Positions 5,003 to 62,294 of a stretch of DNA of 64,000 nucleotides are shown piece after piece. The DNA lies in assembly GCA_964016885.1 (NCBI GenBank), contig OZ024747.1:91760001-91824000 (forward strand). Reading direction: 5' to 3'. Source of the DNA: Eledone cirrhosa (taxonomy: Eukaryota). How positions within the stretch are numbered: the stretch's first letter is position 1; each line of letters opens with the position of its first letter. The notes beneath the pieces were generated by a model. The model was not told the DNA's origin, searched no databases, and was given only the letters and a program-made list of their open reading frames with translations. The position numbers and the translations under genes were made by a program.

Positions 5003-5245
5003 AATAACTGTTTCTACTTTTAGCACAAGGCCAGCAATTACATCAGTGCATTACCAGAGCAATAATTGTTTCGACTTTAGGCACAAGGCCAGCAATTACC
5101 CAGTATATTATTGGTACTTTATTTTATCGACCCCGTAAGGATGAAAGGCAAAGTTAACCTCGGCGGGAAGAGCAATAATATGTTTTATTTAGGCACAGGG
5201 TCAGTAATTTAAGGGACAGGGAAAGTCAGTTGAATTGATCCCAGT
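5003..5245 (-). mobile_element. Stack of 5'-truncated SINE-A copies
   Basis: Three SINE tails in tandem, with AGAGCAATAA repeated at each junction (TSD-like). Confidence 0.85.
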
Positions 5246-5560
5246 CGAGGCGACGGTCACTAGTCTAGCAGCATGTTCGTTGATGCTTGTTACATCCAGC
5301 ATCAAAAACTTAACCTTCTTGGTCTAGGAAGATGTCCGTATCGTCATCCAGGCTTTTCTGAAAGTACACAGCGATTCTGCTACCAGATCCCAAACATATA
5401 AGAGATGCGTACACCCCGTAGTCGCTGAAAATGGGTGCGAAGGCCCATGTCTCAGATATTCTTGTCTCGTTAATGGCCGCCACATCTATATTTAGTGACC
5501 TGAGACTGTTAAGCAGAAAGCTTTGTTGCCAAGACAAGCCCAGTCCACATGCCAACCTTG
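5246..5560 (-). pseudogene. Degraded Tx1-type ORF2 APE N-terminal fragment
   Basis: GLGLSWQQSFLLNSLRSLNIDVAAINETRISETWAFAPIF aligns with GLGSSWKQGHLLNDLRSLNIDVVASSETRISEAQDFAPIF of ORF 54815..58234. It continues past a stop as LDVTS..RLVTV. Confidence 0.85.
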
Positions 5561-10169: not shown

Positions 10170-10380
10170 GTAGTCCAGATTTGCTTTTCAACTTTCGAGC
10201 TGTTCCCAGTATGCATGTCTTCTGGAGCGGTTTAAATCCCTGGTGTAAAGTTTATTTTCAACAGGGAGATTCAAGATTCTTCGTCACCATGCCAAAAGCA
10301 CCAATCACAACTGAGACAATGGGGAAATTCTTCACTTCATAAATCCACCATTTCAAGATTTCATATTTCTAAGTCGGTAT
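10170..10380 (-). pseudogene. Old 5'-truncated R4/Dong-type RLE C-terminal fragment
   Basis: The minus strand encodes ..VVIGAFGMV.. and QKTCILGTARKL, matching PIVIGALG..QKACLLGTARTL of the intact element. Confidence 0.75.
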
Positions 10381-18954: not shown

Positions 18955-19612
18955 TATGTTCTGATTTCAAATTCAACCCTAATCAACTTTGCCTTTCATC
19001 CTTCTCCTGGAGTGTCTGCGGAGCGCAGACCTTCTACCCCCATCCCTTAGGCCCCAAGCCCAATCACCCTCGCCCTTCACCGCTGCTCTCTCTTTTGCGA
19101 CACCAGTGCCATCCTCTCCCCACCCCGTTCTTTTTTCTTTTCCTTTCTATAAAATAAAGTACCAGTAATGCATCGGGATAACTGCTTACCTTGTGCCAAA
19201 AGTAGAAACATTGGTAGATTGGTAGAGGGTCTGACGCCATGCTTTGCAGCAAAGAGTTACGTCCCTTTATGGTCTGAGTTCAAATCCCGCCGAGGTTAAC
19301 TTTGCCTTTCATCCTTATGGGGTCGATGAAATAAAGTACCAGTAATGTACTGGTTAATTGCTGGCCTTGTGCCAAAAGTAGAAACAATTATTATTATTGG
19401 TGGTGGATTGGCAGCATCGGTTGGGCGTCGGACATCATGGTTTGTGGCATAGAGTTACGGTTCTTTACGTTCGCAGTTCAAATCTCGTGAGGTTAGCTTT
19501 GCTTTTCATCCTTACGGGGTCGATAAATAAAACATCAGTAACGCATTTGGGTCGATTTAATCGACTTTCATCTCCTCCAAATTGCTGACCTTGTACCTAT
19601 AGTAGAAATCAT

Positions 19613-19643
<31 letters not shown>

Positions 19644-19715
19644 AAACTACCAGTAATACACTGGGTAATTGCTGGCCTTGTGCCTAACGTAGAAACAATT
19701 ATTATTATTATTATT
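18955..19715 (+). mobile_element. Head-to-tail array of four SINE-A copies or fragments
   Basis: Repeated heads (GGTGGATTGGCAG), cores and tails, most followed by (ATT)n. Confidence 0.9.
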
Positions 19716-19719
19716 GTTA

Positions 19720-20068
19720 TTACTCTTTGAGTCTCAGTCATTGATGTTAGTTAACTGGAAAGTTTGTTGAGATGAATATCAAGCCACTACCTGCAGCCTC
19801 AGATATTCAGGACGTATCGGAGGGTTCTTGCTGTTCCCAGCAAGCATGCCTTTTGAAGCGTTCCAAAAAGCGTGAAGGGGCCAATTTTCTTTAACCATCC
19901 CTGGAAACTTTTTGAGATAGTCCCTAGTGCGCCTATGACAATCGGGATCACTTTGACTTCATGACAGTTCCAAATCCTTTTTACCTCCCACTTTAAGTCC
20001 TGGTATCGGTTAATTTTCTCCCTCTCCTTCTCTTGCACTCTCGTGTCGAATGGGCAGGCCACATCCAC
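19720..20068 (-). mobile_element. 5'-truncated R4/Dong family B copy
   Basis: 89-aa ORF nearly identical to the C-terminus of 51076..54468, plus its 3' UTR. Flanked by TAA-type repeats. Confidence 0.95.
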
Positions 20069-20087
20069 ATATTATTATTATTATTAT

Positions 20088-20120
<33 letters not shown>

Positions 20121-27667: not shown

Positions 27668-28455
27668 AATTTAAAGTGACTCAGCTAAGCAATGCCAAAA
27701 CCCTAATAACGTAACTCGAGCAGTAGATGCCTTGTACAGTCCGTCAACATATCATATTATACACAAACATCTCTCAATACATACGTTTGTATAATCCACA
27801 CTCAGTGATATTACACATCCCACACACCTACAACAACTCTCAAATCTCATATAATTTATTTGATGTCACCCATATAACACATGCACTATATAATCATAAC
27901 ACAATTTACAAGAGACACAAACATCACTCAATAGAATAGTACAAGGCAAATAACATATATAATACAACAATCGCTGAAACATTAGATCAACATGAAAAGA
28001 ATGACAAAAAAAAAAAAACATTCTACATACGCAAAAGACAATGGTGCAGAAAACTCGGGAACATAAAAATGTACCTGGTGACACAGTAGAAGCCCGCGTG
28101 GAACTATTGAAAATGACATTGATAACAGAACAGACGAACAAATCTATGATGTAGTTTCTTAAGGCGCAAAACAACGAAAATGGCGTAAATATCTTTTTTT
28201 TAATATAAATTATTATAGTAAATGGCTTAATGAGAAGGAAAGATGTATAAAAGAAGAAAACAACACATTCAACGTCTAATACCTTGGGAAGTTCAATAGA
28301 GAATAATAACGATGCTATGAGAGAACATAGGTTAATTATTATCATTATTTTATTTCTCAGTGTTTTTCGATAGATTACGAACTAGTAATATAGAGTCTAC
28401 TGCTTATATATCCCCATATGTATTTTACAATTAATGAAATCATTATTATTATAAA

Positions 28456-28652
28456 CGGCGGTAGATTGGCAGTATCGGTAGAGGGTCGGACGCCATGATT
28501 TGACGTATAGAGTTACGGTCCTTGCCATTCTTAGTTCAAATCCCGCCGAGGTTAACTTTGCCTTTCACCCTTACGGGGTCGATAAAATAAATTACCAGTA
28601 ATGCACTGGGTAATTGCTGGCCTTGTGCCAAAAGTAGAAACAATTATTATTG
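28456..28652 (+). mobile_element. SINE-A, full length
   Basis: Complete head, core and tail. Both flanks begin ATTATTATT.TA.AC. Confidence 0.9.

Positions 28653-44920: not shown

Positions 44921-45008
<88 letters not shown>
44921..45008. repeat. Pure (TAA)n microsatellite, unoccupied
   Basis: Seen directly in the sequence. Confidence 0.95.
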
Positions 45009-45010
<2 letters not shown>

Positions 45011-45967: not shown

Positions 45968-48900
45968 AATAACAATTTAAAAAAAAACAACAAAAAGAAA
46001 ACCCCGTGACCAAGAATTACCAGGATGGCGGCCGGCGGGGAATAGCCGTGTCTCTAGGGGAGAACGACCCCTCTAGTCTTGGTTGACACTCGTTCTAGAA
46101 GTGGTAACACGAAATGATTACCCCTTGGCGGATAAGGATAAAACGCGACAAAATAAAGTAAATGTCTAATGATAAAATCTCATACCGGTTCGGCCGTCAC
46201 CCGGGTAAAAAAGGGCCGCGTCCCTCAGAGAGGAACCAGACTGGGGTCGAAAAATTAGTTAATGGTTCAAACCTTCCCATCACTTCGGAGCTGGAGACCT
46301 CCCATAACCGGAATACTCCTACTGTTGACCCTCCATGCTCACCACCAAGAAATCCAAAGAAAAAGAGAGAAAAATGGTCAAGGGAAGATAATAAAGAAGT
46401 CCTTGAGGCTTTCTACACTGCCATGTACTACCCATCAAATACATCGAATACAGAACAGACATATATCAACTGGAAAAAGAAACATCCCGAAAACAGAGGC
46501 TATATTGACAGTAACAAACTAGCCGATATACGAAGAAATATTGTAAGAAAATAGTTACTAACTGATATAGAAATTGATCAGATCAAGCTATTAGCACAAA
46601 GTCAGCGAAGGGAAAATGAAACATGTGTCAGTGAAAACGAGGTAAATTGTAACACTTCGAATCCCAGGGTTGGGGCGGAATCACTGGCAACAGAACAAAT
46701 TAAAGAAAGGATCGAAAAAGTGGAGGGAGTGCATGCTCAAGACGAAACTCCAAATGAAAATAATGAGATCGTAAATGATAAAGAAATGAATGAGAATGAA
46801 CTTGCCAACTTGAAGGATGAAATTATGATCGAATGGATGAAAATGAAAGAATCTGACATGGGGCAACGAGACACCCTCCCTAAGATCCAGAACTCCAAAC
46901 AGAACCAAAAGATAATACACAAGACTAACATAATTCTCAAAAACATTATCATCACAAACAAACTAAACATTACTGATTTAAATCATCTCTATTATGCATC
47001 GACTAAAGTCACCACTCACTTATGTGGAGTGAAGATGAAAAAACAAAGGAATTCCCACAAGAAATCTACTTGGCAAGAGAACATCAATCGCCAAATAAAC
47101 CTTCTCCGATCTGACATAGAAATTTTAACAAACTATAAAGTAGGTGAACATGATAAACAAACTAAACTTAGAAAATTGAAAAAAAAGTACAGTATAAAAT
47201 CAACAAGTGACATAGACATGCTGATAGAAATAATCAAGCAAAAAGTGTCGGCCAAAGCTGCTCGTATAAGGCGCTTTGAAAAACGATCTAGATTCTATAG
47301 GGACAATAATATGTTCAAAAACAACCAAAGAAACTTCTACAGAAAAATTGGTAAGTCAACAATAACTGCTAAATCAATACCACCCAAGGAGGAGGTGCAA
47401 GAATTCTGGGAAAAGATCTGGGCCGAAGAAAAAGTTAATAACATACATGCCCCGTGGAGAGACAGACAAATGAAAGATACAGCTCACCTTGAGGAACAAA
47501 TATGGGAAAATATAACAGTTGAACTGTTGCGCTTGGCTCTAAGAAAAACCAGCAAAAGACAAAATACAAAACTTTTGGATAAATGCCTTCACAGAGTCTC
47601 ATGAGCTGTTAGCCCAACTTTACAATGAAATAGTTAAGGAGCCAGAAAAGATACCATCATGGCTAGTTAACGGCATTACATTCCTTCTTCCGAAGAATGA
47701 TGAGACAAACAATCCCAAAAATTACAGACCGATAACTTGCTTGACTACAATGTATAAAATTTTAACATCAGTCCTAACTGAATACACATATGACCACCTG
47801 ATAACAAATGACCTATTTCCCATTGAACAGAAAGGGTGTAAACGAGGCTCATATGGCTGTAAGGATCAGCTTCTGGTTAACAAAATGATACTGGAAGATT
47901 GTCATAATAGACACAAAAATCTATCGATTGCTTGGATAGATTATAAAAAAGCATTCGATAGTTTACCATACAGTTGGATTGAAAAATGTTTAGAGATTTT
48001 CAAAATATCCCCCGTTGTCAGGAGGTTTTTGTCATTCAGTATGAAGACATGCAAAACGACACTCCTTTTGAATAGTGAAACAAAATCACTAGAAGCTGGA
48101 GAAGTTAATATTAATTGTGGAATTTTTCAGGGTGACTCTTTATCACCGCTTTTATTCTGCATCGCATTTATACCATTAAGTAAAATGCTCAATGAAACAA
48201 AATATGGATATAAAGTCTATGACAAAACCATTAATCACTTGTTCTACATGGATGATCTGAAACTATTTGCAAAAAATGATGAACAATTGCAAGGGCTATT
48301 ATCCACTGTGGAGCAGTTCAGTGATGACATTAAAATGGAGTTTGGACTAGATAAATGCGCCAAAGCAACGTTCACCAGAGGAAAGCTGCTGAAGAGTTCA
48401 GACATTAATCTTGATCGGGGTAACGTGATAAGAGAACTTGATCAAGAAAAAACTTACAAATATCTAGGTGTTTGTGAAGGAGACGGAATCAAGCACTCGA
48501 CAATGAGGGAAAGGATAAGGAAGGAGTGTTACCGCAGAGTAAGAGCAATCTTAAGAACGGAATTGAATGTAAGGAATAAGATCGATGCCATAAACACGCT
48601 TGCCATACCAGTAGTAACCTACAGTTACAATGTCATCAACTGGTCAAGCACAGAGATCTGTAGGCTCGATACAAAAATTCTAAAATTCTTAACCATGCAC
48701 AGAATGCATCAGCCTAAGGCAGATATAGATAGAATATATCTCCCTAGGAAAGAAGGAGGACGTGGGTTAATCCAGTTAGACATTGCGTTGAAAACTGCAA
48801 CAATTGGATTATCTACATATCTAAGGGAATCACATGATTGGATGATCAAACTCGTTTTGAAACACGAAAGCATCAAAAGATCATATTCCATTACAAAAGA

Positions 48901-49938
48901 TGCACAAAGATACAGTAATGGACTACAAATTTCAGAAGTCCCATTTACTGCTGAAATGGAAAACACAGAAAAAGCAAAGCAGGTAAAAGTAACTGCAAAG
49001 AAAGAACTGCTACAGAAACTGGCTAAGAAATGGCAAGAAAAGCCTCTGTATGGAAAATACCCAGAGCGAGCTAACAATCCTGATGTTGACAAAACTTTAA
49101 CCCATCAGTGGTTGCCATCCTCTGGACTGAAATCGGAGACTGAAGGACTGATTATATCAGCACAAGATCAGTGTCTGCCAACAAAAAATTACCAAGCCAA
49201 CATAATAAAAAATGGATGCAGCCCATTATGCCGTGTATGCAAAAAACAACCAGAGACCATTGACCATATAATTTCAATGTGCAGTCCTATAGCTCCAACC
49301 GAATACCTAAACAGGCATGACAGAGCTGCTCAATACATACATTGGATAATGTGTAAGCATTTTGACCTGCCCCATCAAAAGAATTGGTGGGAGCATCAAC
49401 CACCTCCCATACTTGAAAAAGATCACATCTCAATCTTGTGGAACTTTAGCATCCAAACAGACCGAAAAATAGATGCAAATAGACCTGATATAATATTGAA
49501 GGACTTTAAAAAGAGGGCATGCCTGCTAATTGATATGTCTGTTCCAATAGACAAGAATGTATCTATAAAAACATTTGAAAAATTGAGCAAGTATAAGGAC
49601 CTGGAGATAGAAATTGGAAAAATGTGGAAATTGAGAACTAAAACAATACCAGTGGTTGTAGGCGCTCTGGGAATGATACCTAAGGTGTCTAATGATTACT
49701 TATCGCAAATCCCAGGAAACCCGCGTATAGGAGAAATACAAAAGATAGTACTAATGGGAACTGCCCATATACTAAGGAAGATTCTGTCAATATAAGTAGA
49801 TCACAAGTCTAAACACTAAAGATGCATGTGTGAGTATGTATGTTCTTTCTTGAACATGGCGGACCTTGTTGTCTCTTGAGGTCACTGGTTGTGACTTGGT
49901 GATAACTCGTATGAACATAAAGCAAGATAAATGCAACT

Positions 49939-49940
<2 letters not shown>
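45968..49940 (+). mobile_element. R4/Dong-clade RLE non-LTR retrotransposon, family A, full-length but inactivated
   Basis: ORF pieces 46162-46554 and 46720-47604 are in frame (stop at 46552). Piece 47741-49795 follows a frameshift near 47553 where the WKSPG motif is deleted. RT GIFQGDSLSP/YMDDLKL, CCHC CRVC..H....C, RLE RHD..RPD..D..K..KY. (TAA)n tail. Confidence 0.93.
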
Positions 49941-49971
<31 letters not shown>

Positions 49972-49975
<4 letters not shown>

Positions 49976-50530
49976 TGGGCAGGGTGATCCACTGGCACCT
50001 GTGCAAAGTAAACAATTTACCACATTCTGAGAAATGGTATGAGCATAGGCCAGAGTCGGTGATGGAGAACAATCAGGTGAAGGTGCTGTGGGATTTTAGG
50101 ATACAGACGGACAAAAAACTGGAACACAATAGACCTGACCTGGTGGTTGTGGACAAAGAAAAAAGATCGTGTCTGATTGTGGATGTGGCCTGCCCGTTCG
50201 ACACGAGAGTGCAAGAGAAGGAGAGGGAGAAAATTAACCGATACCAGGACCTAAAGTGGGAGGTGAAAAGGATTTGGAACTGCCATGAAATCAAAGTGAT
50301 CCCGATTGTCATAGGCGCACTGGGGACTATCTCCAAAAGTTTCCAGGGATGGTTAAAGAAAATCGGCCCCTTCACGCTTTTTGGAACGCTTCAAAAGGCA
50401 TGCTTTCTGGGAACAGCAAGAACCCTCCGATACGTCCTGAATATCTGAGGCTGCAGGTAGTGGCTTGATATTCATTCCAACGGACTTTCCAGTTAACCAA
50501 CATCAATGACTGAGATTCAAGGAATAACAA
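49972..50530 (+). mobile_element. 5'-truncated R4/Dong family B copy
   Basis: 158-aa ORF near-identical to the C-terminus of 51076..54468, plus 3' UTR. Lies between (TAA)n tracts. Confidence 0.95.
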
Positions 50531-50531
50531 C

Positions 50532-50590
<59 letters not shown>

Positions 50591-50650
50591 TAGATAATAA
50601 TAATAAATATAGATAATAATAAATATAGATAATAATAATAAATATAGATA

Positions 50651-53600
50651 GACTCAAAAGAAAAAAGAAAAAACAAACAACAAAAGCAGCACAGCAACAA
50701 CAGCAAAAAACGAGAAAAACAAACAGAGAAAAACAAAAACAAAAAAAGAAACCCCCAAAACGTAAAGAAAATAAGAATGAAGAGAGAAGCAGGCGGACGG
50801 ACAGAGAAGAGGGGGTAAAAAGTAAAACTTAAAAAACAAAAACTAAGTCAGACATTCGAATACTACATTACAATGAAACTTATGCTTATTCATTTTTGGG
50901 GCCCTTTCTGCCCGTGTGTTTGTTTGTTTATGTGTGTCCGTATACAGCGTGGTGATAATGCCACACAAGGGCCAAGTGGGATGGCGGATCCACAGATGGC
51001 TATGTAAACATACATTCGCCAATCCTCGATAAGAGTGTTTAAATATCGAACATAAACAGTTCGAATAACGGTGAAATGGAGACTAGAACGTCATGTGACA
51101 GACTCTCACCCAACAGGTGCCCCCTGGCTCAGCAGCAGGAACCTGACTGTCAACCAAATACTGCTGATGTTGGAGGAAGAAGAAGAAGGAAAGGGGCCAG
51201 AACCAACTGGACGAAAGAATTGAATAGAACTGTTATGCAATGCTACCTGAAAAGTAACCCCAAGGAGAGGGGCTACAGGAGACGGATGCATAACATCTGG
51301 AACGAGATTGGTTTATTTAAATTAGATGAACAAAAATTGGCCGGGCAGGCTCGGGTAATAAGAACTAATGGGTGGATAAGCGAGCTGGAACTGGAGGAAC
51401 TGAGCAGAGAGAATGGCTTGGAGATGGCGGGTGTAGTATGCCAGACAAGCGAGCCGGCGGGAAATGAAGGTGAGGAGGTCCTGAGAACGGAGGAACCACC
51501 CGAAGCAGACAATGATCTGAATACTGAGATAAATAATACCTGGAACAGAGATACGGCCACTGAGGAGATGAATGCTGACGGGCTAGGACAAGATTCGGTT
51601 GACATCCTAAATTTAGTGGTAGATGAGTTGAACAATGATAGTGGGAGACCTATGAGCCTAAGATTTGTAGACAGGAAAAAGTTAAAAGAAACAACAGCTA
51701 AGGTAAACAAAGTCATCCCATACCTTGAGGCGAGGAGTCTTCACCAGTGCAACAATATCCTCAAAGCAACAGCAAATACGGTGAGGAAACTACTTGGTAT
51801 AAAAGCGAGAGGAAACAACAGACAAGAAAGAGCAGAGCCGTGGTGGAAGAAGCGACTGAGTGGGCAAATCGGGGAAATGAGAAATGACATAGGAAAGCTT
51901 GAGTCACTACTGAATGGGACACTAAAAAACATAGGCACTAAAAATAGACTGGAAATAAAATACAAAACTAGGAGTAAAAAGCTAAATATTATCATAGAGG
52001 AATTGAAGCAACGCATTGTAGCAAAGAGTGCCAAAATCAGGCGATACGAGAACAGAGTCAGTCAGTATAAACAGAACCGCATGTTCGACAACAACCAGAA
52101 GATGCTGTTTGGACAGCTTGAGGGGAAAGAAAGAGGCAACGACTTGATCCCTGGGGCGGAACAAGCTAAAACATTCTGGAGAGGAATATGTGAGCAGGAT
52201 GTTAGACACAATGCCCAGGCAGGGTGGATTGAGACAGTACAGAGGGAGATCGGTGAGCAGGCACAGCAACAGACTGATTTGAGTATCACAGTTGAAACTC
52301 TTAAGGGGCAAGCCAAAAAACTAACCAACTGGAAATCACCAGGCCCAGATGGTGTGCAGGGGTATTGGATTAAACATTTAACGTCCCTCCACCCGAAGCT
52401 GACGGCCATGTTCAATGACTGCTTGGTGTCGGGTGAGGTGCCAGAGTGGTTGACAAAAGGTACCACAGTTCTGATAATGAAAGACCGAATCAAGGGTAAT
52501 GATGTTACCAACTATAGACCTATCACATGTCTGCCCGTAATGTGGAAACTGTTGACGAGCATTGTGTCTGAGGAAATCTACCATCACCTCCACACAAACA
52601 ACTTGTTGCCGGACGAACAGAAAGGATGCCGAAAGAAGTCACGTGGTACAAAGGACCAGTTGCTTATTGATAAGATGGTAATGGGGAATTGCAGGAGGAG
52701 ACACACTGATCTTGCAATGGGATGGATAGACTACAGAAAGGCATTTGACATGGTGCCTCATTCCTGGATCACCAAAAGCCTGGAGATCTTCAGGGTGGCA
52801 GATAACATCAGACAGTTGCTGGGCAGGAGTATGGGGTCCTGGGAGACAGAGTTGACATCAACTGGAGTATCCTTGGGAAGCGTGAAGATCAAGAGAGGTA
52901 TCTTCCAGGGAGATAGCCTGTCCCCTCTGTTGTTCGTCCTTGCCCTGATGCCCTTGACCATTATGCTGCGAAAAGTGAGAGCAGGATACAAGTTGGGAAG
53001 GGGAGAGCTTACCATCAATCACCTCCTCTTCATGGACGATCTTAAGCTCTTCGGGAAAAGTGAGAAGGAGTTGGATGTGCTTGTTGACACTGTCCGTATT
53101 TTCAGCAGTGATATATGTATGCAGTTTGGTATTGGTAAATGTGGAGTCATTGTGATGAGGAGGGGTAGGTTGAGCAGAAGTAACGGGATCCAGATACCAA
53201 CAGGTGAGATGATAAAGGAAATTGACTCTGAGGAAGGATACAAGTATTTGGGCGTTCTGGAGGCTGATGACATAAAGAACAAAAAAATGAAGGAATTGTT
53301 AAGAACTGAATACATTCGGAGAGTAAGGAGCGTATTGAAGTCACATCTGAACAGCAGAAATGCCATAAGCGCAGTAAATTCCCGAGCTGTGTCTATTATT
53401 AGATACAGTGCGGGAATTCTGAGATGGAATGTTGCTGAACAAAAAGAAATGGATAGGAAGACTAGGAAGCTATTGACTATCTACAACATGTTCCACAAGA
53501 GGAGTGATGTCGATAGACTCTACCTAAGGAGATCTGAGGGTGGAAGAGGTCTTATCAGCATAGAGGACTGTGTTCAGATGGAGAAAAACAACCTATACAA

Positions 53601-54572
53601 ATACGTGACCTATAGTAAGGAGCCAATGCTCAGAGCTGTACTGAAGGAGGGGACAGTAGGCCAGGGGATATCCAAGGAGGAAATAACATCAAGGAGGAAG
53701 AGCAGCCTTAAGGGAAAATCCCTTCATAGTACCTTCTTTGAGAAAACTGAATTTAGAGATCCACAGACATGGAACTGGTTGAGAAGAGGAGACCTCAAAA
53801 AGGCTACAGAAGGAATGCTAATGGCTGCGCAGGAGCAGGCCCTCAAAACGAAGTGGTTGAAGCACCATATCTACAAGGAGGAGGCTAGCCCACTGTGCAG
53901 GATCTGTGGAGAGAGAGAGGAGACTGTGGCTCACATTGTGTCCGAGTGTAAACACCTAGCCCAGACCCACTATAAGGGCTGGAGACACGATGTGATGGGC
54001 AGGGTGATCCACTGGCACCTGTGCAAAGTAAACAATCTACCACATTCTGAGAAATGGTATGAGCATAGGCCAGAGGCGGTGATGGAGAACAGTCAGGTGA
54101 AGGTGCTGTGGGATTTTAGGATACAGACGGACAAAAAACTGGAACACAATAGACCTGACCTGGTGGTTGTGGACAAAGAAAAAAGATCGTGCCTGATTGT
54201 GGATGTGGCCTGCCCGTTCGACACGAGAGTGCAAGAGAAGGAGAGGGAGAAAATTAACCGATACCAGGACCTAAAGTGGGAGGTGAAAAGGATTTGGAAC
54301 TGCCATGAAGTCAAAGTTATCCCGATTGTCATAGGCGCACTGGGGACTATCTCCAAAGGTTTCCAGGGATGGTTAAAGAAAATCGGCCCCTTAACGCTTT
54401 ATGGAACGCTTCAAAAGGCATGCTTGCTTGGAACGGCACGAACCCTCCGATACGTCCTGAATATCTGAGGCTGCAGGTAGTGGCTTGATATTCAATCCAA
54501 CGGACTTTCCAGTTAACCAACATCAATGACTGAGATTCAAGGAATAACAATAACAATAATAATAATAATAAT
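50651..54572 (+). mobile_element. Full-length R4/Dong-clade non-LTR retrotransposon, family B
   Basis: A-rich leader, structured 5' UTR, single intact ORF, ~75-bp 3' UTR and (TAA)n tail. Confidence 0.95.
51076..54468 (+). CDS. Reverse transcriptase / CCHC knuckle / restriction-like endonuclease polyprotein (R4/Dong type), 1130 aa
   Basis: WKSPGPDG, YRPITCL, DYRKAFD, GIFQGDSLSP, HLLFMDDLKLF, YKYLG, CRICGEREETVAHIVSEC, RHD, RPDLVV..DVACP..KINRYQDL. Confidence 0.96.
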   Translation: METRTSCDRLSPNRCPLAQQQEPDCQPNTADVGGRRRRKGARTNWTKELNRTVMQCYLKSNPKERGYRRRMHNIWNEIGLFKLDEQKLAGQARVIRTNGWISELELEELSRENGLEMAGVVCQTSEPAGNEGEEVLRTEEPPEADNDLNTEINNTWNRDTATEEMNADGLGQDSVDILNLVVDELNNDSGRPMSLRFVDRKKLKETTAKVNKVIPYLEARSLHQCNNILKATANTVRKLLGIKARGNNRQERAEPWWKKRLSGQIGEMRNDIGKLESLLNGTLKNIGTKNRLEIKYKTRSKKLNIIIEELKQRIVAKSAKIRRYENRVSQYKQNRMFDNNQKMLFGQLEGKERGNDLIPGAEQAKTFWRGICEQDVRHNAQAGWIETVQREIGEQAQQQTDLSITVETLKGQAKKLTNWKSPGPDGVQGYWIKHLTSLHPKLTAMFNDCLVSGEVPEWLTKGTTVLIMKDRIKGNDVTNYRPITCLPVMWKLLTSIVSEEIYHHLHTNNLLPDEQKGCRKKSRGTKDQLLIDKMVMGNCRRRHTDLAMGWIDYRKAFDMVPHSWITKSLEIFRVADNIRQLLGRSMGSWETELTSTGVSLGSVKIKRGIFQGDSLSPLLFVLALMPLTIMLRKVRAGYKLGRGELTINHLLFMDDLKLFGKSEKELDVLVDTVRIFSSDICMQFGIGKCGVIVMRRGRLSRSNGIQIPTGEMIKEIDSEEGYKYLGVLEADDIKNKKMKELLRTEYIRRVRSVLKSHLNSRNAISAVNSRAVSIIRYSAGILRWNVAEQKEMDRKTRKLLTIYNMFHKRSDVDRLYLRRSEGGRGLISIEDCVQMEKNNLYKYVTYSKEPMLRAVLKEGTVGQGISKEEITSRRKSSLKGKSLHSTFFEKTEFRDPQTWNWLRRGDLKKATEGMLMAAQEQALKTKWLKHHIYKEEASPLCRICGEREETVAHIVSECKHLAQTHYKGWRHDVMGRVIHWHLCKVNNLPHSEKWYEHRPEAVMENSQVKVLWDFRIQTDKKLEHNRPDLVVVDKEKRSCLIVDVACPFDTRVQEKEREKINRYQDLKWEVKRIWNCHEVKVIPIVIGALGTISKGFQGWLKKIGPLTLYGTLQKACLLGTARTLRYVLNI

Positions 54573-54814
54573 GTTTTCTTTATTAACCACAAGGGTTCAC
54601 ATAAAGTAGACATTAAGGACAGTACAGGACAATACAGGACGGTACAAATGGGCATTTCTGCGTGTAAAAAACAGAGGTTGAAATAAAATAACAAAGAAAA
54701 ATTCCCCAATAGGGGGGAGACTTCCAAGGGACATTTGTGGAGAAAGCCCATTAAAAGACCACAGTGGCCCTGACCACCAGGGCAAGCGCCCTCTCCCAGT
54801 TTTCCACCTTTAAT

Positions 54815-57800
54815 TTACAGACACATACTCAGAGAAGGCCCATTCATTCGGGCCATACTTGCTTCTCTCACCCATCTTTCAACAAAATGCTGGGAAGAGA
54901 GCACTTCCCTCTCTACCCTGATTTTCCTTTTCAAATGAAATTTGAAAAAGTTAATCAGGGCATCACCGAAGAGGTAAGTGCTCGTCTTCAGCCCTTTCAA
55001 ACGTGTCCACCATACTATCTCTTTCGCCATGGCCACCAGACAGATAAAAACTGCCTGCACTTCCAGGCTAAAGGAAGGGGGCGGGGCAATCCTCACGATG
55101 GACTCAGCTGATAGCTGGATCCGTCCTACACGTGACAGCAGGTGTTCGAGATAAACCCACAAGTCAGCAATGCTCGGACACTGGACGAGTGCGTGCAGGA
55201 CGGTTTCGTGGCCCTGCGCGCATCTCGGACATGCCCGGCTGACGGCACCTCCATGCCTGTAGAGTTTATCCCGAACTGGCAAAGCTCCTCGGTAGCACTG
55301 CCAGGCCAGGGATTTCTGGAAGTTGTCCATAGGCCCCGGCCTGAAAGTCCTTCCGAAGAGATTGGCTAGTTGATTTTCGTCGACGCCTAGAGTTTCTCCA
55401 AGTACGTCGTCGCTCTTCCCCTCCACTAATCCCCTATAGAACGCCAAGGTGGAGTTTCCACCGATCACATTGCCCGATTGGTCGAGGGCTGTGAGCGCCT
55501 GAAGACATTCCAGTCTCCAAGCGCTCCCTCTCGGTCTTCGCTTGACCCAGGACTGCAGCTCCGTCAAGGAGACGAGCTGGGGAAAAACGTGTCTTGCAAA
55601 CGGCGACCACACCTGATCACCGTCGAGGAAGAGGTGGAGATGTCGTAGCCTGAGCGCGTGTCTGCGCATCATCAGCCACGGCATGCCCAGCCCTCCACGT
55701 AGCGGGTGTTGACAGCAGATGGACCGCCTGACCATCGGAGCGCGTCCCTTCCACAAGAAGCGAAAGAGCAAACGCTCCAGCGCAGTCAGGCGGGGCTTCG
55801 GACAAGGTACGACGGTCAGGCGGTAGTAGATGACGGATGCGATGTACGCATTCGCCACCTCCTCTCGACCTTTCAGGGATAGCTTCCTCTCGGCCCATTT
55901 CTGGGTGAGAGAAGCCACCCTGCTCGTCACCTCGTCCCAGTTTTTGTTCGTCTGGAGGTCTGGACCGAACCAGACCCCTAGCAATTTAACCGGTCCGTCC
56001 GTCCAGCGCCCGACGACGCTGTTGGACGGCATGGACCTGCCTCTCCAGGTGCCGAGCTGCAGGCCCACTGACTTTTCCTGGTTGATCATTGCTCCTGTCA
56101 CCGCTTCGTATTCTCTTAGTGTAGTGCCGATCGCCTCGATGTGTTTGGCGTTCGACACCACTACGGTGACATCGTCGGCATATGCTGACACGGATCTTCC
56201 GCATCCTAGTTCGCGCGGGACCCCCCTCAACGTCTCCAGTTTGTGCAGTAATGGCTCGAGAGTCAATACGTACAATAGGGACGAGAGGGGACATCCTTGG
56301 CGGACCGAGCGCATGATGTTGAACGGTTCCGAAAGGTGACCGTTCACTCTCACTACAGAGCAGATGTCGCTGTGCATGGCAGCGATCCAGCCTCTGAAGA
56401 CGGGCCCAAAGCCAGCCGCCCTCAGGACTGCCGCTAGGTAACGATGGTCGACCCTATCGAAGGCTTTCGACTGATCTAAATTGATCAAAGACCCACCCGT
56501 GCCAGGTTCCCTAGCTACCCTCTCTACGATGTATCGCATGAGGTGGAGGTTGTCGTGGATGGATCTGTCGGGAATGGCGCATGTCTGTGCCTCTCCCACC
56601 AGACCACCAACGACAAGCGCCAACCTCTTTGCTAGCACCTTGGCCAAAATCTTGAACTCTGTGTTTAGCAGAGTTATGGGCCTAAAATTATCTATGTTAT
56701 CCCCCTTGTTCGGATCCTTTCTCAGCAGCGCCACAGCTCCTCGGCTCACAGAGCTGGGAATTCTCCCGTTCTGTTGCCAGTTGCAGTAGACGTCCGCCAA
56801 GAGGCCTCCGAACAAGTTTGGCATTTGTACGTAAAGTTCATAGGGCAGACCATCCAAACCAGGCGATTTACCCCTTGTGCAACTAGTCATTGCATCCCGT
56901 ACTTCAGCGGTTGTTATCGGCTTTTCGCAACACTCCGCCTCAGTGGCCGAAAGCCGCGGCAGTCCGTCGAGGTAGACACTAAAGTCCATCCCTCGATCCG
57001 GCCCGCCACTGCCCCCGAACAGTTGAGCGAAGTGTCGCTGAAAAGCTTCACACATTTGCCCGGGATCGAGTAGCATGCGCCCGTCGAAGTCCACCAAAGA
57101 CCGGATCGTGGCTTTGTTGCCACGACGCGCCTCCGCCACTCGGGCCCATTGAACGGCTTTCGTCCCCTCGTGTCTGAGAGCACGCACCCTTGCTCTGACA
57201 ACGCAGCCTTCGTGCTTTGCATTGAAGAATTGGTCAAGGGCCAATTTCGCCGCAAGTACGTCGGTCGCGATGCCTTTGCTAAGCGCCTCATCTAATTTTC
57301 TAACTAATTCTCCCTCTGCTCTATTTTTCTCTATTGCTAAAGTCTTACTAAACCTAATGGACTCTATTCTAATTGCTCTTTTCAGAGCAAACCACCAGTT
57401 GTTGTTGACGATGGCCCCCGTCAACGCCCGCTTAACTAGTTCGCTAATCCGGTCTCTGTAGGCCTTGCGCGCTGGTAAGGACGCGTTTAGCTTCCAGTAG
57501 CCGGGTCCTCGTCTATGAAGCCTATCTAAGTCAAGCACACAGATCACGAATTTGTGGTCCGTGTAGCTGACTATCTTGAATTGTGGACAGGCTATGCTAG
57601 ACCTATCTATTTCCCTACAAAATACTCTATCTAGATATGATCTGGATGACCCTATGCGATTTGTCCAAGTCCACATTGGTACATTCGGGAAATCCATTCG
57701 GTACCTGTCAGACAGTTCAAAACGTCTGAGCAGGTTGGTGAGACTCTTGCACCCTCCTTCCCTATCCACTAATCCCACACAATCCCAGCGTGCATCTAAG

Positions 57801-58234
57801 ATCCCGTTCCAGTCGCCCACTAACACTAAAGAGCGGGACGTTCCAAGAAAGGTCTCCAGACGCCGGAAGAAATCAGGCCGCCCTGCTCCTGTCGGGGCAT
57901 AGACGGCCACTAACCTGAAAGCTTGCCCGTCTCCGCTGGTCACGTCCAGCACCACCATCTTACCTTCTGGGTCCAGGAATATGGCCCGTATGGCAAGATC
58001 CAAACCTCTCCGAAAAAGCACAGCAACTCCTCCCCCCGATCCCGGACGGCTGGGAGATGCGTACACATCGTAGCCGCCGAAGATCGGTGCGAAATCCTGC
58101 GCTTCTGAGATTCTGGTCTCGCTGCTGGCCACTACATCTATGTTTAGTGACCTGAGGTCGTTGAGCAGGTGGCCCTGCTTCCATGACGACCCCAAGCCAC
58201 GCACATTTATGCTGCCTATTCTGAGTGAGGTCAT
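54815..58234 (-). CDS. ORF2: APE endonuclease + reverse transcriptase + C-terminal Cys-rich knuckle, 1139 aa
   Basis: IGSINVRG, SET, VYAP, GDWN, SYLDR, TDH (APE). KSPGLDG, FRPITLLN, DQSKAFD, VRQGCPLS, AYADD (RT). CPRC..ETVLHALVQC. Confidence 0.96.
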   Translation of the reverse strand: MTSLRIGSINVRGLGSSWKQGHLLNDLRSLNIDVVASSETRISEAQDFAPIFGGYDVYASPSRPGSGGGVAVLFRRGLDLAIRAIFLDPEGKMVVLDVTSGDGQAFRLVAVYAPTGAGRPDFFRRLETFLGTSRSLVLVGDWNGILDARWDCVGLVDREGGCKSLTNLLRRFELSDRYRMDFPNVPMWTWTNRIGSSRSYLDRVFCREIDRSSIACPQFKIVSYTDHKFVICVLDLDRLHRRGPGYWKLNASLPARKAYRDRISELVKRALTGAIVNNNWWFALKRAIRIESIRFSKTLAIEKNRAEGELVRKLDEALSKGIATDVLAAKLALDQFFNAKHEGCVVRARVRALRHEGTKAVQWARVAEARRGNKATIRSLVDFDGRMLLDPGQMCEAFQRHFAQLFGGSGGPDRGMDFSVYLDGLPRLSATEAECCEKPITTAEVRDAMTSCTRGKSPGLDGLPYELYVQMPNLFGGLLADVYCNWQQNGRIPSSVSRGAVALLRKDPNKGDNIDNFRPITLLNTEFKILAKVLAKRLALVVGGLVGEAQTCAIPDRSIHDNLHLMRYIVERVAREPGTGGSLINLDQSKAFDRVDHRYLAAVLRAAGFGPVFRGWIAAMHSDICSVVRVNGHLSEPFNIMRSVRQGCPLSSLLYVLTLEPLLHKLETLRGVPRELGCGRSVSAYADDVTVVVSNAKHIEAIGTTLREYEAVTGAMINQEKSVGLQLGTWRGRSMPSNSVVGRWTDGPVKLLGVWFGPDLQTNKNWDEVTSRVASLTQKWAERKLSLKGREEVANAYIASVIYYRLTVVPCPKPRLTALERLLFRFLWKGRAPMVRRSICCQHPLRGGLGMPWLMMRRHALRLRHLHLFLDGDQVWSPFARHVFPQLVSLTELQSWVKRRPRGSAWRLECLQALTALDQSGNVIGGNSTLAFYRGLVEGKSDDVLGETLGVDENQLANLFGRTFRPGPMDNFQKSLAWQCYRGALPVRDKLYRHGGAVSRACPRCAQGHETVLHALVQCPSIADLWVYLEHLLSRVGRIQLSAESIVRIAPPPSFSLEVQAVFICLVAMAKEIVWWTRLKGLKTSTYLFGDALINFFKFHLKRKIRVEREVLSSQHFVERWVREASMARMNGPSLSMCL

Positions 58235-58268
58235 GTTGAAAAGGAGTGGAAAAGATGGGAAAGACCAC

Positions 58269-60224
58269 TTACCTTACTTCTCGTAGGGGAAGGACGGTTT
58301 TTCCATCCTTTTCACTGCTTGTGGCCTCCTCAGGAAGGATGTCCTTATAAATCCTCCTGGAGAGTGCTTGTCGGAAGTCTCCGATGTCTTTGGGGAATTT
58401 TTGTTTTAGTGTCATGTACGTTTTCTGTGTGATGCGAGTGATTTGTATGTGTGTAGGTGGTGTGAATTTTGGGGTTGTTGTGTAGTCTTTTTCTGTGATG
58501 CTGGTGTTGTGTTGGATGTAGTGTAATAATTGCTTGTTGTTCAAATTTAATGCTGTGTAGTGTGTATCGTTTTGGTTGTTTTGTTTTGTTTGCGTTTGTT
58601 GTGGGTTTGTTTCTGTTTCGCATTTTGGTGACTTTTGTGGTGTAGGTGATGGTGGTATTGGAGTTAATGATGGTGATGGTGTTGGTGTTTGGGTTGATGG
58701 GGTTGGTGATGCTGGTGTGGATGGTGGCATATCTGTCCTAACTTTTTTGTTTCTTAGTTTATTTGTTTCCCTCTGTGTTTTGTTTTTGGAGGGAGAAGGA
58801 AGAGAATTTTTTCTTTTTTGGTTTCTTTTTTTTTCCGGATATCGTTTCCCACTCCTCGTCGTCACAATCTGTCTCCAGTTGTGATAGGCCGGGGAGTGGA
58901 AAATCCTCCACAGCCGTTAGTTTTGGTTGTGGTGTGGTGGATGGTGTAGGCGCTGGTGCTAGTTCTGAAGCGTTGGGTGGTGGTGGTATTGGTTTTGCTG
59001 GTGGTGGTAGTGGTGTTGGTTTTGCTACTGTTGCTGGGGTTGTTGCTGTTATAGTTGCTTCTGTTGTTGCTGCTACAGTTGTTGCTGCCATCTCTGCTAC
59101 TGGTGGTGTTGATGGTTGTGTCACTGGGGTGGGTAGGAGAGGTGGCCTCAACCTTTTAGCCTGAGGGCAGAAAGCCCTTAGGTGGGTTCCTTCACCACAA
59201 ACGACACACCTAGGTCTTCTGCCCTCGACAATTACCGTGAGGTGGCTGCCGTCAGTGGGGTCTATTACCTCTGGGATCTCCTCAATGCTTTTTTGGTCCG
59301 CTTGGATCAGGAGCTCCATCCCAGATCCGGACCAGTTTTCCTGCTTTTCTTTTGCTACTGCTATTATTTTCGTGTTGGCTTCGATGCCGGCGAGGACAGC
59401 CGCTATTAGCCAGGGAATTTCGATGGCCGGTGGAACGTGGGTCACCCTGATCTTTACGAGTCTCTGGCCACAATAGCTTGGGACGAGTGTGAGGTCGTCA
59501 CTTTTTAATGGGGCCATGGAGTGTTCTCTAGCCTCCTCTGGTGTTTCAAAGAACACATCCACGGTTCCATACTTTTGCCCACGTCTGATGTGGGTTTTTC
59601 TTGCCCACACATGTCCCAAAGCTTTTTGGATTTGGGACTCGGATGCCCGTTCCACTCGGCGCGATTTTACATTTATTGTTCTATACGACACGGTGTACAG
59701 GCGCCGATGCTCCATTTTATTAGGTGGGGGTGTGAGGCTGACCCTGTACCCATCTTTCTTTACCATTTGTTTGGCATTTTCTAAATCTTCTTGAGTTACG
59801 GTAAATGCTTCGAATTGTTTTGCTACTCTGGCGAAACTGAGGGGGGGTTTATAATGTCATTGTTGTTGTTGTTGCTATCGTTAATATTAATTTTAGTTTC
59901 AGTTGTGGTGGTGGTGACGTCAGTCGTCTTTGGTGGGGAAGAGTCCATTTTGCTTGATTTCATTTTGACATCACGAGTTAATTTATTTTTTTCTTCTTTT
60001 GTTTCTGTTGTCGCGGTGGTGGTGGTGGTGGAGGCTTTAACACCTGCAGTCATTGGTAATGGTGGGAAATGAATGTCTGCCTGAGACAAATTTAAAATAT
60101 TGCTACTGCTTATATTTTTTTTTGTGTTGGCAAACGTAGTAACATTTACAATGGTGGTGTCGGTGTGAGGTGTTATTTTGTGAGGAAGGCTTTCAGCTGC
60201 TTCGTGCAGAGGTGAAGTAGCCAT
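58269..60224 (-). CDS. ORF1 (gag-like, CCHC zinc knuckle), split by two frameshifts at homopolymer runs
   Basis: Pieces 59823-60224, 58759-59766 and 58269-58865. CVVCGEGTHLRAFC knuckle, Pro/Thr-rich linker, W..ISGKK basic patch. Frame changes near the G run at ~59840 and the T run at ~58826-58834. Confidence 0.8.
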
Positions 60225-60433
60225 TTTTTTTCAAAGAAATTTTTTGATAATAATAAAAGTTAAAATTTTGGGCACAAGGCCCCAATCTTTTTAGGTGTCC
60301 TTTTCGGAAAACAATGTATGTGTGCTTATAAACAGTTAACAATAAAATTTTCCATAAATGGCAATTTTTAAACAAACGGAAATAATAAACCTTTGCGGAG
60401 CTCACGATAATACGATTTTCTACGTAGGTCGCC

Positions 60434-60523
<90 letters not shown>

Positions 60524-60541
60524 AAGAAGAAGAAGAAGAAG
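60434..60541. repeat. (TAA)n followed by (AAG)n
   Basis: Seen directly in the sequence. Confidence 0.95.
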
Positions 60542-60546
60542 ACAAT

Positions 60547-60920
60547 ATGCCTGACAAAGTGGTTTTTGACAAGGAAAAAAGATCGTGTCTGATTGTAGAT
60601 GTAGCCTGCCCCTTTGACACAAGAGTGCAAGAAAAGGAGAAGGAGAAAATTAGCCGATACCAGGAGTTAAAAAGGATTTGGGACTGTCATGAGATCAAGG
60701 TTGTCTCGACTGTCATAGGAGCACTAGGTACTATCTCAAAGAGTTTTCAAGGATGGTTAAAGAACATTAGTCCAGCTCCTTTTTTGGAACACTTCAAAAG
60801 GCATGCTTGCTGGGAACAGCAACAGCACTCCGATACGTCCTGAATATGTGAGGCTGCAGGTAGCAGCTTGATGTTCATTTGAACAAACTTTCCAGTTAAG
60901 TAACATCAATGACTGAGACA
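60547..60920 (+). mobile_element. Older 5'-truncated R4/Dong family B-related copy
   Basis: PD.VV.DKEKRSCLIVDVACPFDTRV.., with small deletions and a frameshift. Same 3' UTR. Confidence 0.9.
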
Positions 60921-61505
60921 ATAACACCAATGACAATAACAATCCAAGAGTAATAATAATGATGATAATAATATTATTATTCACTCACGAACACATTTAG
61001 GCATCCACCTTGTTAGAGTGAAAATTATTTTTTTAAAAATATTTTTCGTTTTCTACTGCTATCATTTACTAACCGAGATGCAACGTAATCGACTGGTCTG
61101 CTAAAACAGTAGCCAGTTTTGTCTGAAACTACTGCTTATTTAGAGATATATTGTAATATTTAGTTCGGGTTACTCTTTAACGTAGAGCATACGGTGCATT
61201 GTAATGGCTTGAATGATTTTGAAAATGCGCCTGCTCTATCATGGCTGACTGAACGCCAAACAACTGCAACATATCAACACGCACAAACATATCATTTATA
61301 TATACGATTTCTCACTAGCGATATTTCTTAAGCTAATAACCAGCGAATGTTTGTAATATGTCATATTAACTGCAATCATTTTCACATTACTGCATATTCC
61401 GAATCTCCATAGTTTATTTCTTTTAATTATAGCAATCCTTCTACCCAACAAGCTTTCCTTATCAACCTTTTCCCTCAACTCTAAATTATCATCATTAATA
61501 ATCAA

Positions 61506-61830
61506 GGGCAGTGGTTTGGCAGTATCGGTAGAGCGTCAGACACCATGTTTTGCAGCATAGTTATGGCCCTTTGCGTTCTGAGTTCAAATCCGCCGAGGTT
61601 AACTTTGCCTTTCATCCTTACGAGGTCGATAAAATAAAGTACCAGTGGTGCACTGGGGTAATCGCTGGCCTTGTGCCAAAAGTAGAAACTCTAGAGTTAG
61701 GTCCCTTTATTATCTGAGTTCAAATCCCGCCGAGGTTAACTTTGCCTTTCATCTTTACGGGTCGATAAAATAAAGTACCAGTAATACACTGGGATAATTG
61801 ATGGCCTTGTGCCTAAAGTAGAAACAATTA
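61506..61830 (+). mobile_element. SINE-A dimer (full + truncated)
   Basis: Two cores and two tails in tandem. Confidence 0.9.
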
Positions 61831-62107
61831 ATAATCACTGTCGTTAGTTTAAACATTCTCATTGCCCCACGCTTGATCCTCACGTACACCTCAGATCATC
61901 TTCAACCCCAATAGGAGTTTCTTTATAATCATCAGTTATTTTTCCAAAAATCATCACCAACGGCGTCTGCTGTACATGCATAACCGTTACTGGTATATTA
62001 TTACAAATATCATTGTCATCATTATTTCTATCGAAAGAGTGAGAGAGGGTGTGGAGGGAGGAGAGCAGGAAAGAAGGGGAGAAGGGGAAATATGTAGGGG
62101 AAATAAT

Positions 62108-62294
62108 TGTTTCTACTTTTGGCACAAGGCCAGCAATTACCCAGTGTATTACTGGTACTTTATTTTATCGACCCCATAAGGATGAAAGGCAAAGTTAACC
62201 TCGGCGGGATTTGAACTCAGAATGGCAAGGGCCGTAACTCTATGCGTCAAAGCATGGCGTCCGACCCTCTACCGATACTGCCAATCCACTGGCC
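62108..62294 (-). mobile_element. SINE-A with 18-bp TSD
   Basis: TSD ATATGTAGGGGAAATAAT at 62090-62107 and 62295-62312. Confidence 0.92.

Follow-up and report, generated by a model that had tools for sequence, protein, structure and literature searches.

Dong-type and Tx1-like retrotransposons in opposite polarity along a TAA-repeat array in the octopod Eledone cirrhosa

Organization of the retrotransposon train

The 64,000-nucleotide stretch of the Eledone cirrhosa genome analyzed here (hereafter the window; positions 91,760,001 to 91,824,000 of contig OZ024747.1, assembly GCA_964016885.1) is AT-rich and dense in microsatellites, contains no N and carries a train of five retrotransposon copies between positions 45968 and 60920. 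Four of these are Dong/R4-type elements on the forward strand and one is a Tx1-like element of the L1 group on the reverse strand, in the order Dong-A, a 5'-truncated copy of a second family termed Dong-B, a full-length Dong-B copy, the Tx1-like element and an older Dong-B-like 3' fragment. Order and strands agree with a first-pass annotation of the same sequence, as does the opposite polarity of the two groups, the Dong copies being sense with TAA and the Tx1-like element sense with ATT. All local counts given below refer to the 64-kb window, in which a single copy of the Tx1-like element with its ends is present.

The annotation further held that the elements are joined only by TAA-type linkers, and for three of the four linkers this was the case. 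Linker 1 (49940–49973, forward strand) is pure (TAA)11. Linker 2 (50523–50639, forward) consists of AATAACAAC, (AAT)18 and three copies of AAATATAGAT separated by 2–3 AAT units. A fourth AAATATAGAT unit starts at 50640, so that four AAT-spaced copies span 50586–50649 at the 5' junction of Dong-B; these likely arose either as slippage copies of that junction or through repeated template jumps. Linker 3 (54543–54572), an (AAY)10 run with no strand assigned, is where Dong-B and the Tx1-like element meet tail-to-tail, at the position previously proposed. The fourth linker (60434–60541, forward) is on the other hand compound, with (AAT)20 at 60434–60493 followed by (AAG)16 at 60494–60541, and the last Dong fragment consequently abuts AAG rather than TAA. 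As the left edge at 45968 also holds just four imperfect units (GAT AAT AAC AAT), joining by TAA alone is nearly but not wholly right.

On the sense strand of the Tx1-like element, positions 60494–60541 read (TTC)16, the target repeat of the Tx1 family Koshi, 60 nt from that element's 5' end. This run is probably part of the compound microsatellite.

Dong-type elements

The full-length Dong-B copy (50640–54542, forward) holds a single intact open reading frame (ORF) at 51043–54468 with its first ATG at 51076, encoding a reverse transcriptase (RT; FMDD), a CCHC finger and an RPD..D..K endonuclease. Pfam domains RVT_1 and zf-RVT were found and Exo_endo_phos was absent, and the best solved relatives were R2 proteins, with the match extending over the segment of the restriction-like endonuclease (RLE). 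The layout is thus that of R4/Dong elements, namely a single ORF with RT, CCHC finger and C-terminal PD-(D/E)xK endonuclease and no apurinic/apyrimidinic endonuclease (APE), and none of the 120 matches listed bears a family name.

Dong-A (45968–49939, forward; 5' border approximate) is a near full-length R4/Dong-type element with RT, CCHC finger and RPD..D..K restriction-like endonuclease. It belongs to a family distinct from Dong-B, the two proteins being 40% identical across 753 aligned residues, and it is dead owing to an in-frame stop at 46552–46554 and a frame break near 47555, the latter removing the SPGPDG-type motif that is present in Dong-B. The truncated Dong-B copy (49974–50522, forward) matches the 3' end of the full-length copy at 97.4% identity, while the older Dong-B-like 3' fragment (60542–60920, forward) is 84–88% identical to the other copies, has broken frames and ends in a decayed TAA tail that reaches to about 60975. 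Taken together, Dong-B-type copies are 84–97% identical and have distinct truncation points. They are therefore separate insertions and the tract was used at different times.

An independent Dong-B 3' fragment lies outside the train at 19727–20069 on the reverse strand and is flanked on either side by TAA in its sense orientation. Including this copy, TAA-type tails were seen at all five Dong-type 3' ends examined, one of them decayed, and clean TAA adjoins the 5' end in three of five. The earlier claim that Dong uses TAA and lies sense with it is borne out by these ends.

The independent fragment is itself part of a mini-train at 19580–20120 made up of SINE (short interspersed element) pieces, (ATT)6, the Dong-B fragment, (TAA)6 and an 11-unit TAG/CTA repeat, and its compound 5' flank resembles the (AAT)(AAG) linker of the train. 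At 10186–10368 on the reverse strand lies a degenerate piece of a restriction-like endonuclease that has 39% identity to Dong-B; no TAA tail was seen at it.

The Tx1-like element

The Tx1-like element (54573–60433, reverse) is a full-length member of the L1 group and, read on its sense strand, is flanked at either end by (ATT)n. ORF2 (54815–58234, reverse) is intact and encodes 1139 aa with an N-terminal APE endonuclease, an RT (YADD) and a C-terminal CCHC finger, with catalytic motifs present. It is closest to L1 ORF2p (E 1e-52, residues 5–855) as compared to R2 (E 5e-21). The two endonuclease classes proposed for the train, restriction-like in Dong and APE in the Tx1-like element, are accordingly supported by Pfam domains, motifs and solved relatives alike. 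At the 3' end, AATAAA stops 6 nt before the end of the element and there is no poly(A) tail.

ORF1 (58269–60223, reverse) precedes ORF2, as in the L1 group, and is interrupted by two frameshifts near 59856 and 58830. Programmed frameshifting was considered and set aside because both breaks sit in homopolymer runs. The ORF1 sequence holds one CX2CX4HX4C knuckle. A structure model of mean predicted local distance difference test score (pLDDT) 41 matched nearly exclusively proteins with an RNA-recognition motif (RRM), with a best E of 3.7e-4, and ORF1 thus probably carries one or more RRM-like domains, as far as a model of this score can indicate. ORF1 of the Tx1 clade is characterized by an RRM and a CCHC knuckle.

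Among named proteins, the RT is closest to one from Argonauta hians (73% identity); other named neighbors are turtle and fish proteins. An RT tree was computed in quick mode with 55 rows, using 53 of 292 proteins, all of which were retained; it has an open backbone and includes no labelled Tx1 or mammalian L1 row. In this tree the Tx1-like RT groups with the Argonauta protein and one unnamed protein at a support of 100, inside an otherwise unnamed group of 15 rows. We refer to the element as Tx1-like since its layout places it in the L1 group, whereas membership in the Tx1 clade is not settled by the RT tree. Searches of the ESM Atlas returned generic RT clusters only, and folding of the 5' leader was no better than that of shuffled sequences (z 1.37). 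No tRNA genes were found.

At 5241–5548 on the reverse strand, next to SINE tails, lies an old internal piece of an endonuclease domain, which at 69% identity in nucleotides represents a related Tx1-like family.

SINE copies in ATT polarity

The annotation described the microsatellite as shared by three families. Repeated use was confirmed, but a fourth user was missed, namely a SINE that from its head we take to be tRNA-type. About 20 copies are present in the window (e.g. 19211–19390, 28451–28646, 61500–61830 and 62104–62294), the pieces often being tandem or nested, with a tail that runs into (ATT)n and a head that often follows ATT. At least two ATT units were found at 10 of 16 tails, as compared to at least two AAT units at 2 of 16. 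Five of nine heads had at least two ATT units within 30 nt against a background of 3.8% (p 9e-6), one of these five following the tail of another SINE. These data establish an insertion machine of ATT polarity in this genome but do not tell which long interspersed element (LINE) provides it.

A link to the Tx1-like element was looked for at the 3' ends. Aligned from the end, the final 22 nt of the Tx1-like element agree with SINE tails at a mean of 14.4 positions. Of 127,940 positions, 153 came up to this end-anchored level; most of them are SINE copies and, by eye, about 7 are other sites. The end-anchored test was chosen after the match had been seen and the result is therefore kept as a lead only. 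Local alignment of the SINE tail to the Tx1-like 3' end was not significant, with 253 of 2000 shuffles reaching the score (356 of 2000 for the Dong-A control). An equally live alternative partner is RTE or RTE-BovB: RTE is much expanded in cephalopods (PMC10294476) and the octopus RTE has a microsatellite 3' end (PMC9115989).

Origin of the train

The five copies were probably added in succession, each by target-primed reverse transcription into the same (TAA)n tract. Priming would be from the TTA strand for the Dong copies and from the TAA strand for the Tx1-like element, strands that are assigned by reading polarity under the standard model. Each insertion would split the tract, leave repeats on both sides and add tail units, and slippage would regrow the repeats so that the site stays usable. 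In addition, the Tx1-like family may prefer sense-strand (ATT)n by means of its endonuclease, helped by pairing of the (AUU)n end of its RNA, as suggested by the one copy. From the self-extending landing pad put forward by the annotation, reuse of the tract at different times is thus retained, while regeneration of the target is a step that we infer. The order in which the Tx1-like element and Dong-B inserted is not readable from their junctions. There is no nucleotide match between the two and therefore double-stranded RNA or piRNA, suggested previously as products of convergent transcription, would require read-through across the junction.

The specificity of the Tx1-like element was evaluated from its flanks. 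The 3' run may be the element's own tail or that of Dong-B and only the 5' run is therefore informative. This flank is (ATT)20, in perfect units directly adjoining the element, whereas at least five ATT units lie directly upstream of about 0.2% of strand positions in the window. Outside the train, pure AAT/ATT tracts of at least five units make up 0.45% of the window, and AAT/ATT accounts for 7 of the 121 pure di- and trinucleotide tracts of at least six units. The observed flank, set against these backgrounds, favors targeting. Further points on this side are the SINE, as a second ATT-polar element, and the published repeat targets of other Tx1 families. An (ATT)n-specific Tx1, as the annotation had it, is consistent with (ATT)n on both sides of this one copy but not established by it; the sole other relative in the window is the internal fragment at 5241–5548.

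Several observations weigh against targeted, sequential insertion. There is a single Tx1-like copy with ends, selected on account of its flanks, which puts ATT specificity at n=1. The 5241–5548 relative has no ATT flanks, though it also lacks both ends. A pure (AAT)29 tract at 44921–45009, 1 kb upstream of the train, has no element at either end, and long tracts are thus not always filled. At the 5' ends of Dong-A and the last Dong fragment, clean TAA is missing. LINEs with a repeat tail of their own likewise have AATAAA and directly after it the repeat (PMC4758252). Inside the Tx1-like 5' leader, just before ORF1, a SINE-tail-like motif followed by short ATT is found at 60245–60283 on the reverse strand; it may mark the true 5' end, which could then be about 190 nt further in, or it may be a captured SINE piece. 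Under either placement the flank is ATT in the same polarity. Lastly, in the quick tree the RT stands apart from the named fish and turtle proteins, and consequently no relation to Kibi- or Koshi-like families is demonstrated.

The strongest competing explanation, possible though on balance unlikely, is a Tx1-like element without endonuclease specificity, whose own (ATT)n tail pairs at a short ATT patch; the tracts would later grow by slippage, and Dong-B would then enter the Tx1-like tail. The 3' end of the element, with AATAAA followed by the repeat and no poly(A), is as this would predict. So is the arrangement at 19698 (19.7 kb), where a SINE tail meets the Dong-B fragment tail-to-tail in the same geometry as that of the Tx1-like element and Dong-B. 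Many of the AAT tracts in the window sit at SINE ends, SINE heads are preceded by short ATT patches only, and the genome is rich in expanding microsatellites. Against this explanation stand the 20 perfect units that directly abut the element's 5' end, together with the fact that repeat targeting is common among Tx1 families (PMC4494074).

Passive accumulation, in which the family inserts at weak AT-rich sites and this copy happened to land, and was tolerated, in a gene-poor tract that Dong had already been using, appears improbable. It draws on the single copy and on the 56 flanking reading frames, none of which gave a convincing protein-coding match; weak Pfam matches in two of the 56 were both under the curated cut-off. 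It also draws on abundance. In Octopus vulgaris L1-Tx1 totals 56 Mb in 80 families, as compared to 93 Mb for Dong-R4 (PMC13282606 supplement), and with L1-Tx1 so abundant, a scan across a genome will meet rare coincidences at some place. Set against this are the chance of about 0.2% per insertion for the 5' flank and a 3' side of the same polarity and phase class. Recent insertions in O. vulgaris number 1129 for Dong-R4 and 421 for L1-Tx1 (PMC13282606), and Dong-R4 is both abundant and recently active in Octopus (PMC13282606, PMC8967140).

An assembly or duplication artefact behind part of the array, through repeats that were collapsed or were joined at microsatellites, is hardly credible: every junction is indeed a simple repeat and the ORF1 frameshifts lie in homopolymer runs, as sequencing errors do, but the copies differ by 3–16% with distinct truncation points, the window is free of N and two long ORFs are intact.

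A broader reading that takes in the SINE is speculative and rather doubtful at present. According to it, an octopod-specific Tx1-like lineage with an (ATT)n-specific APE would be the partner LINE of the very abundant, ATT-tailed octopod SINE of tRNA type; both would seed AAT tracts throughout the genome, Dong would colonize these tracts from the other strand, and the systems would feed each other's targets. If true, such mutual feeding would help explain octopus genomes rich in AAT, SINEs and Dong.

Comparison with known systems

The train is a real feature that is well explained by known biology. Its novelty was overstated in the first-pass annotation, as a site shared by APE and RLE elements (Keno and Utopia) and elements in opposite orientation in one repeat (TRAS and SART) are published, and the concept of shared targets and opposite orientation is accordingly not new. 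What may be new is the ATT target of an octopod Tx1-like lineage, seen in one copy, together with a possible link to the dominant SINE. A search of the literature by title and start of abstract returned neither an ATT-targeting Tx1 nor an opposite arrangement of Dong and Tx1; most subscription journals, Repbase and Dfam were outside this search, and "undescribed" is therefore unproven. The available parts of PMC8967140, PMC3747384 and PMC4824008 hold nothing on octopod targets. Fig. 3 of PMC4494074, which gives targets per family, may bear on novelty. If the ATT preference holds, the target-specific Tx1 families would gain a mollusc host and a microsatellite target that is new to them, and there would be a natural pair of unrelated endonucleases that read opposite strands of one repeat. 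If the SINE link holds as well, a driver would be named for a SINE class to which about 12% of the O. vulgaris genome belongs (PMC13282606).

Dong elements are known to target TAA microsatellites, including a snail family (PMC3812793, PMC3774820). The R4-clade members Bombyx Dong, DongAg and snail DongBg share the TAA target of the elements described here (PMC3812793). They are likewise similar in layout, with a single ORF of RT, CCHC finger and C-terminal restriction-like endonuclease. Bombyx Dong has a 5' ribozyme resembling that of hepatitis delta virus (HDV; PMC3774820), whereas none was found at the Dong 5' ends here, which gave no Rfam hit and no match to a strict descriptor that was run without a positive control.

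Among Tx1 families, targets of TC, TTC, TTCC and TTTC repeats are published, a family being regarded as target-specific when >20% of its copies are flanked by one target type (PMC4494074). Kibi at (TC)n, Koshi at (TTC)n and the crocodilian families at (TTCC)n and (TTTC)n resemble the Tx1-like element in their L1-group ORF1, in an ORF2 of APE, RT and finger, and in the use of a microsatellite in one polarity. Unlike these, the element described here is flanked by (ATT)n, resides in a mollusc, falls in a small RT clade with the Argonauta protein and an unnamed one, apart from the named fish and turtle proteins, and shows its specificity in one copy only. In crocodilians, Tx1-Mar was inferred to mobilize SINEU from a shared target preference (PMC4494074). 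ATT polarity is similarly common to the SINE and the Tx1-like element of E. cirrhosa, whereas the 3' end link amounts to a weak 22-nt match.

Keno, a Tx1 element with an APE, and Utopia, with an RLE, share U2 snRNA genes as a target through parallel evolution (PMC4640811). In that case the target site lies in a gene and the 3' flanks are identical, whereas here a microsatellite serves as the target, and does so in opposite polarity. TRAS and SART form arrays in opposite orientation within one repeat, that of the Bombyx telomeres (PMC10088271). Both are however R1-clade elements with an APE at telomeres, whereas the train of E. cirrhosa pairs an RLE with an APE at an internal microsatellite.

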